NCBI GenBank assembly: GCA_964399495.1
Contig: CAYNQX010000015.1
Coordinates: 7,380 to 71,379 of the forward strand
Direction of reading: 5' to 3'
From: an uncultured bacterium
GTDB lineage: Bacteria > Krumholzibacteriota > Krumholzibacteriia > JACNKJ01
DNA: 64,000 bases
Positions 28,684 through 30,701 of this stretch are shown here, in pieces. A model generated the notes under the pieces. It did not search any database and had not been told where the DNA came from. It saw only the letters and a program-made list of their open reading frames with translations. The translations under genes were made by a program, and so were the position numbers. Positions within the stretch are counted from its first letter, which is position 1. The number at the start of each line of letters is the position of its first letter.

Positions 28684-29706
28684 ATGTCACTCCGAGTCGG
28701 AATCATGGGCTTCGGCCGCATCGGCCGCAATCTCTTCCGACAGGCCCACGAGCGTGAGGATATCGACATCGTCGCCATCAGCGACCTCGGCACGCCCGAA
28801 TCCATGGCCTATCTGCTCGAATTCGACACGATCTACGGGCACTTCCCCAACGAGGTCACCCTGGACGGCAAGTACCTCCGCGCGGGCCGCCAGAGCGCTC
28901 GCCTGCTCAAGGGCGTCACGCCCGAGGACATGCCCTGGGACGCCTACAACGTCGACGTCGTCGTCGAGTCCACCGGCGCCTACCGCGAGCGCGCCCAGCT
29001 CGAAGGTCACCTGCGATCCGGCGCCAAGAGGGTCATCCTGACGACGCCCGCCACGGACGAGATCGACCGCACGATCGTGCACGGCGTGAACGACGAGACC
29101 CTTCGTCCCGAGGACTGCATCATCTCCTGCGCCAGCACCACCACCCACGCCCTCGGCCTCACCCTGAAGGTGCTGGACGAGGCGGTCGGCGTGGAGCGCG
29201 CGATGATGACCAGCGTCCACGCCTACTCCAGCGATCAGAAACTCTCGGACACCATCACGCCGAACCTGCGCCGCAGCCGCAGCGCCGCCGAGAACCTGAT
29301 CCCCAACTGGACATGGTCGCCCGGCGTCATCGAGTGCATGATGCCCCACCTCAAGGGTCACATCGACGGCATGGCCGTGAACGTGCCGGTGCCCAACGGC
29401 TCGAATCTCGACCTCAGCCTCCAGCTGAGGAAGAGCCTGAGCGCCGAAGAGGTGAACGCCATCGTGCGCGAGGCCGCCGCCGGCGAGCTCGGCCGCTACC
29501 TGGAGTACTCGGACGAGCCCATCGTCTCCAGCGACGTGATCGGCAACGACCACTCCGCCGTCTTCGACTCCCTGGCCACGCTGGCCCTGCCCGGCGGCCT
29601 CGTGAAGACCATCACCTGGTACGACAACGGCTGGGGCTACGCGGCCCGCATCCTGGACACCGCCGTCACGCTCGGCGGCTACCTGGCAGAGGAGGTGCAG
29701 CGATGA
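28684..29706 (+). CDS. GAPDH-like protein lacking the canonical catalytic Cys
   Basis: [10 protein letters not shown]-binding fold, DVVVESTG and WYDNGWGY retained; active site reads [10 protein letters not shown] instead of [10 protein letters not shown]. Confidence 0.88.
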
Positions 29707-30701
29707 AAGTCGCCATCAACGGCTTCGGCCGCATCGGACGCAGCGTCTTCCGTATCCTCGACCAGAAGGACGGCATCGACGTCGTGGCCATCAACGACAT
29801 CACCGACAACGACGCGCTGGCCTACCTGCTCAAGTACGACACGGTCATGGGCAACTTCCCCGGAGAGATCTCCGTGGAAGGCGACATGATGCGCACCGAC
29901 AACGCCACCGTGAAGATGACCGAGATCCCCGACCCCGCCGAGTTGCCCTGGCAGGAGCTGGGCGTGGACTACGTGGTCGAGGCCACGGGCATCTTCCGCA
30001 CGCGCGAGCAGATCGCGAAGCACCTGAACGCGGGCGCGAAGAAGGTGATCCTCACCGTGCCGGCCAAGGACGAGATCGACTGCACCGTGGTGCTGGGCGT
30101 GAACGAGCACGACCTGAAGGCCGAGCACCAGATCGTGTCCAACGCGAGCTGCACCACCAACTGCCTCGCCCCCGTGGCCAAGGTGCTCAACGAGAACTTC
30201 GGCATCGTGAGCGGCGTCATGACCACCGTGCACGCCTACACCAACGACCAGCGCCTGGCCGACGTGCCTCACAGCGACTGGCGGCGCAGCCGCGCGGCGG
30301 CGGAGAACATCATCCCCACCACCACCGGCGCGGCCAAGGCCGTGGGCAAGGTGCTGCCGGAGCTGGAGGGCAAGCTGGACGGAATGGCCATGCGCGTGCC
30401 GATTCCCGACGGCTCCATCGTCGACCTGGTGGTCGTGCTCAAGGAGGAGGCGAGCCCCGAGGAGATCAACGCCGCCATGCGCGCGGCGGCCAAGAGCGAG
30501 GGCTTCCTGAACATCCTCAAGTACTCCGAGGATCCGATCGTCTCCAGCGACATCGTGGGCGATCCGCACTCGTCGATCTTCGACGCGCCCTTCACGCGCG
30601 TCGTGGACGGCCGCTTCGCCAAGGTGCTCTCCTGGTACGACAACGAGTGGGGCTACTCCAACCGGGTCGTCGACCTCCTGGGGCTGCTCGACCGGCTCTG
30701 A
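29703..30701 (+). CDS. gap: Type I glyceraldehyde-3-phosphate dehydrogenase
   Basis: [46 protein letters not shown] and WYDNEWGYS; ATGA overlap with the upstream gene. Confidence 0.97.

Follow-up and report, generated by a model that had tools for sequence, protein, structure and literature searches.

Can a central glycolytic enzyme have a non-catalytic regulatory subunit? This question is posed by two adjacent genes in a 64,000-nucleotide (nt) stretch of contig CAYNQX010000015.1 from an uncultured Krumholzibacteriota bacterium; this whole analysed stretch is referred to here as the window. Glyceraldehyde-3-phosphate dehydrogenase (GAPDH) belongs to the most intensively studied enzymes, and its bacterial form is regarded as a homotetramer. 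In the window, the gene for a canonical type I GAPDH (here D) directly follows a gene for a second GAPDH-like protein (here U) without the catalytic Cys. Judged by its sequence, U is a catalytically dead, selectively maintained GAPDH paralog, or pseudoenzyme, that forms a fixed module with D. The segment 28684-30701 is filled by these two same-strand genes, U first and then D, and the window contains no further GAPDH gene. The two-gene unit is laid out as follows (window positions, strand).

28672-28678, +: Shine-Dalgarno-like GAGAGGA, 5 nt before the U start (read from the sequence)
28684-29706, +: gene U, ATG at 28684 to TGA at 29704-29706, 340 amino acids (aa), Cys-less GAPDH paralog
29690-29695, +: AGGAGG, Shine-Dalgarno sequence of D within the last U codons, 7 nt before the ATG
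29703-29706, +: ATGA, in which the D start overlaps the U stop (read from the sequence)
29703-30701, +: gene D, ATG at 29703, 332 aa, canonical type I GAPDH with Cys, His and WYDNE
30732-30757, +: GC-rich hairpin resembling an intrinsic terminator, CCCGCCGC / GCGGCGGG followed by TTTTT, which closes the two-gene unit

The coordinates confirmed an initial annotation of this DNA, which had described an intact U frame overlapping gap by ATGA. The terminator scan placed the site at 30740-30752, and the longer 8-bp stem was read from the sequence. No sigma-70-like promoter was found at the locus by the scan, and Rfam gave no match in 27800-31300. The public gene call for U begins at Met8 (333 aa). 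This start drops 28684-28704 and with it the first beta-strand, RVGIMG, which is conserved in all 340-aa homologues. Since full-length homologues span residues 1-340, the start at 28684 is supported. A protein identical to U was called on 14 metagenome contigs from several samples, and 94-96% of sampled words from 28600-30750, which covers both genes, were present in four DNA runs. A sequencing or assembly error is therefore excluded for U.

Aligned over their entire length, U and D share 45% identity. The residues that distinguish or unite them are listed below in the numbering of U itself; canonical GAPDH numbering is used in the text unless stated otherwise.

28708-28725, +: NAD fingerprint GFGRIG, residues 9-14
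28783-28785, +: Asp that binds the NAD ribose, residue 34 (AISD)
29125-29148, +: active-site stretch SCASTTTH (SNASCTTN in D)
29128-29130, +: Cys149 of U (TGC), three residues before Thr152, lineage-specific
29137-29139, +: Thr152 (ACC) at the position of the catalytic Cys
29218-29220, +: His179 (canonical His176) in VHAY, kept, and invariant in 55/55 Cys-less members
29260-29298, +: C-terminal half of the S-loop; R196 and R199 invariant, S200 a family-specific invariant
29302-29319, +: remodelled phosphate (Pi) loop, PNWTWS for PTTTGA, with the Asn invariant in the clade
29380-29382, +: Asn233 (AAC) replacing Arg231 of the substrate-phosphate site, NVP for RVP
29617-29631, +: WYDNG, Asn kept and Glu314 replaced by Gly (WYDNGWGY, WYDNEWGY in D)

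Compared with the canonical enzyme, U also carries Met for Asn6 and Ser for Asn31, and its C-terminal tail is short and contains no Cys. The initial annotation had reported the exchange of the catalytic Cys for Thr with a Cys three residues earlier, the change of PTTTGA to PNWTWS, and that of RVP to NVP; all three were indeed present, and the exchanges of Glu314, Asn6 and Asn31 are additions to its list. Our residue check also found what it had listed as retained, namely the NAD fold, the His of VHAY, the S-loop RRSRSAA and WYDN.

Both proteins belong to the GAPDH family. U matches PF00044 (Gp_dh_N, E = 4.9e-30) and PF02800 (Gp_dh_C, E = 1.2e-43), and the same two domains were found in D. However, only D (451.6 bits) passes the cut-off of 367.2 bits of TIGR01534, the model for type I GAPDH (EC 1.2.1.12), whereas U fails with 332 bits. 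With the Epd models TIGR01532 and NF010058, U scored 283 bits, far below the cut-offs of 530 and 539. Like type I GAPDH (GapA), to which it is 38-45% identical, U has GxGxxG, Asp32, His176, Asn313 and the S-loop motif RxxRxAAEN. Unlike it, U lacks Cys149 and Arg231, and shows T206N, G209W, A211P, E314G, N6M/F, N31S and N180S. The Pi site is thus altered at Gly209 and Thr206, and its residues Ser148 and Thr208 are still present in the U family. The NAD motifs GxGxxG, Asp32 and Asn313 are conserved in this family as well, with Asn6, Asn31, Asn180 and Glu314 replaced. Epd (TIGR01532) is another GAPDH paralog that has diverged and handles phosphate differently; it is 37-38% identical to U, but keeps the catalytic Cys and Arg231.

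An AlphaFold2 model of U built from the family alignment has the GAPDH fold, with a predicted local distance difference test score of 89.1 and a predicted template modelling (TM) score of 0.88. Confidence is low over a long stretch only in the S-loop (residues 182-203), which fits a loop that is ordered by quaternary contacts. A Foldseek search with this model returned GAPDH and Epd chains only, with TM scores of about 0.9. Among the best matches were the C149A and C149S variants of Bacillus stearothermophilus GAPDH (1NPT, 1NQ5), which, like U, lack the Cys and which were crystallised with NAD+. A Cys-less GAPDH is therefore able to fold and to bind NAD. These variants differ from U in that they are point mutants made in the laboratory, with Arg231, the Pi loop and Glu314 intact. 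The closest PDB match by sequence is the GAPDH of Thermotoga maritima (295 bits), and the U family has no solved structure.

The loss of the nucleophile is a property of the whole family. All 120 nearest database homologues of U (55-100% identity) lack the catalytic Cys and have Thr, Ser, Ala or Gly in its place. NVP and IPN..W are common to all of them, and WYDNGWG was found in all except one truncated entry (P0100). Even homologues with as little as 48% identity carry the signature, which extends over about ten phyla. Cys, RVP and WYDNE, on the other hand, were kept in each of the 76 partner GAPDHs with 300 aa or more and in all 66 canonical cluster representatives, the latter having been selected by these motifs. 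Members of the U family carry the public names "type I glyceraldehyde-3-phosphate dehydrogenase", "aldehyde dehydrogenase" or "GAPDH NAD-binding domain-containing protein" (for example MCB1162090.1, MCA9726817.1 (UniRef100_A0A956LY85), MGH9866598.1 and MBT3317600.1). Through the labelling as type I GAPDH, the number of GAPDHs is inflated when the metabolism of Marinimicrobia, Acidobacteriota and others is reconstructed.

The gene order is conserved as well. One genome per GTDB species was scanned with family-specific peptide patterns, and among the best 80 loci of at least 600 stretches, a U-type gene immediately preceded a canonical gap of the same strand in 80/80, across about ten phyla. By their labels, the loci come from Eisenbacteria, Acidobacteriota including Polarisedimenticolia, Latescibacterota, Krumholzibacteriota, Planctomycetota, Actinomycetota, Desulfobacterales, Neomarinimicrobiota (Marinimicrobia), Fidelibacterota, Fibrobacteraceae metagenome-assembled genomes (MAGs), and MAGs labelled Gammaproteobacteria. 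Among these loci, those from Eisenbacteria are nearest to the window (79% identity). In every lineage examined the genes around the pair were different, and no third conserved gene accompanied it. A wider conserved operon with pgk or tpi was therefore rejected, and only the two-gene module is conserved. One MAG, CAYLUE01, contained two different U-D pairs (contigs L047 and L052), which could be two copies in one genome or the result of a mixed bin.

The upstream paralogs fall into two classes. The Cys-less class comprises 55 loci including the window, and the Cys-keeping class 23 loci with the active-site stretch SNASCT[AS]NA (L012, L017, L019, L021, L023, L024, L026, L030, L032, L033, L042, L046, L048, L055, L061, L070, L071, L073, L075, L076, L078, L081 and L082; upstream gene at about 6001-7030 in most). 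Both classes have Asn for Arg231, Gly for Glu314, a bulky aromatic residue at Gly209 and a residue other than Asn at position 6. Position 231 is Asn in 55/55 Cys-less members and in 96% of the Cys-keeping ones (rarely Cys or Thr), and never Arg. Position 314 is Gly in 96-100% of both classes, compared to Glu in 100% of the partner GAPDHs. Gly209 is replaced by Trp in 75% of the Cys-less clade, and by Trp or Tyr in the Cys-keeping class. The Cys-less class is further marked by invariant Asn206 and Ser198 and a near-invariant Ser180. The Cys-keeping class, which is annotated as ordinary type I GAPDH, retains Cys149, His176, Thr179, Arg195 and Thr208. Its pocket columns are relaxed too, with an entropy of 0.77 bits versus 0.07 in its partners.

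The Cys that lies three residues upstream in the window gene could be taken for a relocated nucleophile, as could a Cys at +2 in other lineages. These positions are not conserved, which rules out this option. Residue 152 of U is Ser, Ala or Thr across the Cys-less clade, the position of the window Cys149 varies between Thr, Cys, Asn and Ala, and 36 of the 55 members lack a Cys altogether in the active-site stretch.

A neighbour-joining tree showed the Cys-less class as a monophyletic group on a long stem and the Cys-keeping class as a basal grade. The D genes clustered with reference GAPDHs, and the U and D subtrees were broadly congruent. Outside the main clade, the Cys was lost independently in paralogs that are otherwise of the Cys-keeping class: to Pro in L054 (1291-2310) and P0300/P0306, to Asn in L066 (2132-3160) and L067 (4991-6004), to Val in P0301 and P0124, and to Ser in P0314. 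These patterns suggest a two-step history. A gap duplicate would have lost Arg231 and Glu314 and gained the bulky aromatic residue at Gly209 with the Cys still kept. The large clade to which the window gene belongs would then have lost the Cys and tightened its coupling to gap, and other lineages would have lost the Cys on their own.

If U were merely decaying, its sequence should have lost constraint. Relaxed selection, which the initial annotation had named as the observation that would speak for decay, was not seen; the dN/dS values (ratio of nonsynonymous to synonymous substitution rates) of U equal those of D. They were calculated pairwise by the Nei-Gojobori method (NG86) for U and D in the same genome pairs. 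Examples are given below.

L001-L004 (window clade): U 0.151, D 0.202
L001-L009 (window clade): U 0.169, D 0.142
L005-L007 (window clade): U 0.056, D 0.050
L036/L045 (close pair): U 0.082, D 0.102
L057/L060 (close pair): U 0.052, D 0.040

Overall, the values for U were about 0.03-0.4 and tracked those of D, with 0.05-0.17 in the window clade; because the synonymous distance dS is near saturation in many pairs and the GC content at third codon positions (GC3) is high, the absolute values are rough, and the comparison of U with D is internal to each pair. Codon bias was strong in both genes (effective number of codons 28.9 for U and 27.8 for D). With the nucleophile and Arg231 lost family-wide and purifying selection acting on U, the proposal of a conserved paralog unable to perform GAPDH or Epd chemistry gained support.

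Column entropies, calculated for the 55 U proteins of the Cys-less class and for the D proteins paired with them, show where the constraint lies.

Catalytic and anion pocket: D 0.08 bits, U 1.14 bits
NAD-site columns: D 0.28 bits, U 0.84 bits
Remaining S-loop columns: D 0.09 bits, U 0.65 bits
All other columns (background): D 1.03 bits, U 1.36 bits

The pocket of U has lost nearly all constraint, and protection persists at the cofactor site and in the inter-subunit loop. Invariant in the Cys-less clade are the glycines of GxGxxG and His176, and Asp32 (96%), Thr96, Asn313 (98%), Arg194, Arg197 and the IVSSD segment are invariant or nearly so. The position of Thr179 is kept as Thr or Ser. Arg195 is conserved in 78% and replaced by Trp, Gln, Leu, Phe or Tyr in sublineages. 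The drift of the pocket, together with a protected NAD site and S-loop, argues against a new catalytic site and fits a folded, oligomer-forming pseudoenzyme that would bind NAD(H).

The initial annotation had predicted that U is translationally coupled to the real gap. In addition to the ATGA overlap in the window, the spacing between the U stop and the D start was -4 to +3 nt in 55/55 Cys-less loci, of which 32 had a -4 overlap (ATGA or GTGA) and nine a 1-nt overlap. The Cys-keeping junctions spanned -4 to +88 nt, and 4 of the 23 were within the tight range; in both counts the loci are phylogenetically non-independent. The contrast of 55/55 with 4/23 indicates that coupling became tighter in the lineage in which catalysis was abandoned. 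A GGAGG-like motif precedes D at a comparable distance in most related loci.

A trace of the partnership may also be found in D. Its S-loop reads HSDWRR instead of the usual DLRR, with Trp193 at window positions 30279-30281. This Trp was present in 54/54 D partners of Cys-less U proteins, in 0/22 partners of the Cys-keeping class and in 5/66 canonical representatives, and may be a co-adaptation to U.

On balance, we lean towards U being a non-catalytic, NAD(H)-binding subunit that is made 1:1 with GAPDH and assembles with D. According to this model, ribosomes that end translation of U would start again on D at the ATGA, with the AGGAGG 7 nt upstream as an aid, and re-initiation there would mean that both chains are made at the same place and in about equal amounts. 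The chains would then join via the retained GAPDH interfaces to form a mixed tetramer, most simply U2D2, in which glyceraldehyde-3-phosphate would be turned over by the D subunits only. U probably still binds NAD(H) and could stabilise or tune D, for example in its cooperativity or redox response. The conserved coupling, the S-loop and the NAD fingerprint fit such a hetero-tetramer and NAD(H) binding, as far as sequence can tell. A bolder and more tentative extension, which we consider plausible, is that several large bacterial lineages, most of them uncultured, have an obligate U2D2 as their housekeeping GAPDH. Half of its subunits would be a dead NAD(H)-binding paralog that governs the stability, cooperativity or redox response of the active half. 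Candidates, with the same reserve, are Marinimicrobia, Eisenbacteria, Latescibacterota, Fibrobacteraceae-type MAGs and part of Acidobacteriota.

Several observations weigh against an assembly of U with D. The contact between the two chains is inferred rather than directly observed. The first half of the U S-loop has diverged (the canonical sequence is V-P-H at 188-190). The RNA at the junction has no significant structure compared with shuffled sequences (z = -0.49), and D has a Shine-Dalgarno sequence of its own; coupling would thus act by proximity and re-initiation, with no demonstrated RNA lock. Four partner-specific substitutions in D were found and no more, and Trp193 may be a single inherited change without co-adaptation. 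The new residues fixed next to the pocket (Asn206, Asn231, Ser198 and Ser31) could be a sign of a new ligand site instead of a simple loss. The evolutionary rate of U exceeds that of D (mean pairwise identity 55.5% versus 70.2%), and the dN/dS values were obtained at a GC3 above 0.9, with dS near or beyond saturation in many of the pairs. No metatranscriptome containing the locus was found (index shares of at most 0.06); three RNA runs of the same study left U and D uncovered apart from one conserved 32-nt fragment. Finally, no natural U-D fusion was found among the top 150 phmmer matches from a scan of 1.84 billion representatives.

Some candidates for a lock or a fusion were discarded. An RNA switch or forced coupling at the junction was ruled out by the lack of an Rfam match and a junction fold like that of shuffles. 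In P0314, a called protein of 564 aa on a contig of 665 kb, a C-terminal fragment of the U type is linked to an entire canonical GAPDH via an apparently out-of-frame stretch; P0314 is most likely a frameshift or read-through artefact instead of a real fusion. P0121 (2089 aa), P0156 (1455 aa) and P0129 (509 aa) consist of 2-4 tandem Cys-bearing GAPDH domains that are unrelated to the U family, and were ruled out as U-D fusions because they are tandem canonical GAPDHs.

The lack of a U-D fusion among those matches and the few co-changes in D leave room for an alternative in which U forms a homotetramer of its own, separate from D. It would then be a non-catalytic NAD(H)- or metabolite-binding redox sensor, buffer, scaffold or moonlighting protein that is co-expressed with D merely as part of the same pathway. 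The retained NAD fingerprint, Asp32 and Asn313 are in line with this, as are the new invariant polar residues near the former anion sites (Asn206, Asn231 and Ser198), and there is a precedent in an inactive trypanosome GAPDH-like protein with a kept cofactor site that was proposed to bind a ligand (PMC4106842). However, co-regulation alone does not require a junction of -4 to +3 nt in 55/55 loci across phyla, and no third conserved gene travels with the pair. The conservation of the S-loop is equally well explained by either tetramer and therefore lends this alternative no support. We consider a separate homotetramer unlikely, yet worth keeping in mind.

The initial annotation had also offered an enzyme with different chemistry. 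In this case U would be an active, NAD-dependent but Cys-independent enzyme that uses His176 with the new Asn, Ser and Trp residues on another substrate, for example by direct hydride transfer, which other Rossmann dehydrogenases use. His176 and Ser148 are indeed invariant, the NAD site has been preserved, Asn206 and Asn231 have become fixed, U is under strong purifying selection, and the sister class, with Cys149, His176, Thr179, Arg195 and Thr208 in place, may be active with altered specificity. A new active site would nevertheless be expected to be conserved, and the pocket columns of U are nearly unconstrained, with 1.14 bits close to the background of 1.36 and far from the 0.08 of D. The position of the Cys is taken by Ser, Ala, Thr or Gly, positions 146-153 and 207-213 vary freely, Arg195 is exchanged in sublineages, and 36/55 members have no Cys nearby. 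A new chemistry is thus disfavoured, and we regard it as rather improbable.

The idea of a recently inactivated duplicate on its way to a pseudogene, to which the lost catalytic residues and the somewhat faster evolution than D might point, is refuted by the family-wide signature (in homologues down to 48% identity and about ten phyla) and purifying selection (dN/dS of 0.05-0.17, equal to D), along with the intact frame, the monophyly and deep divergence of the Cys-less clade and the strong codon bias, and its probability is negligible.

A pseudoenzyme subunit paired with D would have parallels in other enzyme families. Non-catalytic paralog subunits are GlgD of the ADP-glucose pyrophosphorylase of Firmicutes, ClpR of the cyanobacterial Clp protease, and PyrC', an inactive dihydroorotase in the aspartate transcarbamoylase of Pseudomonas. 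These bacterial examples are encoded beside the active paralog, as is U. In trypanosomes, the prozyme of S-adenosylmethionine decarboxylase (AdoMetDC) is a non-catalytic paralog subunit of an oligomeric enzyme (PMC6221367). Like U, the prozyme, GlgD, ClpR and PyrC' are duplicates of the active subunit that have lost catalytic residues and are under selection. Complexes of the prozyme type were shown experimentally, whereas the association of U with D is deduced and concerns a different enzyme family.

Within the GAPDH family, the chloroplast enzyme is an A2B2 tetramer of GapA and GapB, and PDB entries with A and B chains illustrate that paralogous GAPDH chains can co-assemble. Unlike in the U-D pair, both of these subunits are catalytic, regulation involves the C-terminal extension of GapB, which carries a Cys pair, together with CP12, and the genes are not coupled in an operon. 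The sole natural inactive GAPDH-like protein found in our literature search was TbGAPDHL, a flagellar protein of trypanosomatids that is predicted to be inactive and has a conserved cofactor-site region (PMC4106842). In contrast to U, TbGAPDHL is eukaryotic and cytoskeletal, is poorly conserved between species, was interpreted as a relic, and is not coupled to an active GAPDH gene (PMC4106842). The full-text literature search returned no description of a bacterial Cys-less GAPDH paralog, nor of such a subunit in a bacterial glycolytic enzyme. Term searches in the text of a 2025 review of the GapDH superfamily brought up no bacterial Cys-less paralog either.

An obligate U2D2 would, as far as this literature search shows, be the first pseudoenzyme subunit reported in a bacterial core glycolytic enzyme. 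Such a heteromer, if real, would also be relevant to two properties of GAPDH that have been debated for a long time, its half-of-sites reactivity and its NAD cooperativity. The series from an active paralog via the loss of Arg231 and Glu314 to the loss of the Cys, which occurred repeatedly, is a natural one that can be used to study the origin of pseudoenzymes.

Upstream of the pair in the window, and divergently transcribed from it, are two large genes of the gingipain family (Peptidase_C25), whose products have a propeptide and C-terminal FlgD_ig domains according to Pfam (20159-26158, -), and a gene for a 300-aa FlgD_ig protein (27376-28278, -). Directly after the gap terminator, a stand-alone response-regulator receiver protein of 123 aa is encoded, and 13 nt further on comes the gene for a protein of 190 aa with no Pfam match (30894-31851, +). 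The next cluster (31958-36867, -) encodes a GntR regulator, an ABC (ATP-binding cassette) ATPase and two paralogous multi-pass membrane proteins of about 600 aa without a Pfam match. Its genes overlap at their ends, and it looks like an uncharacterised ABC-type transporter.

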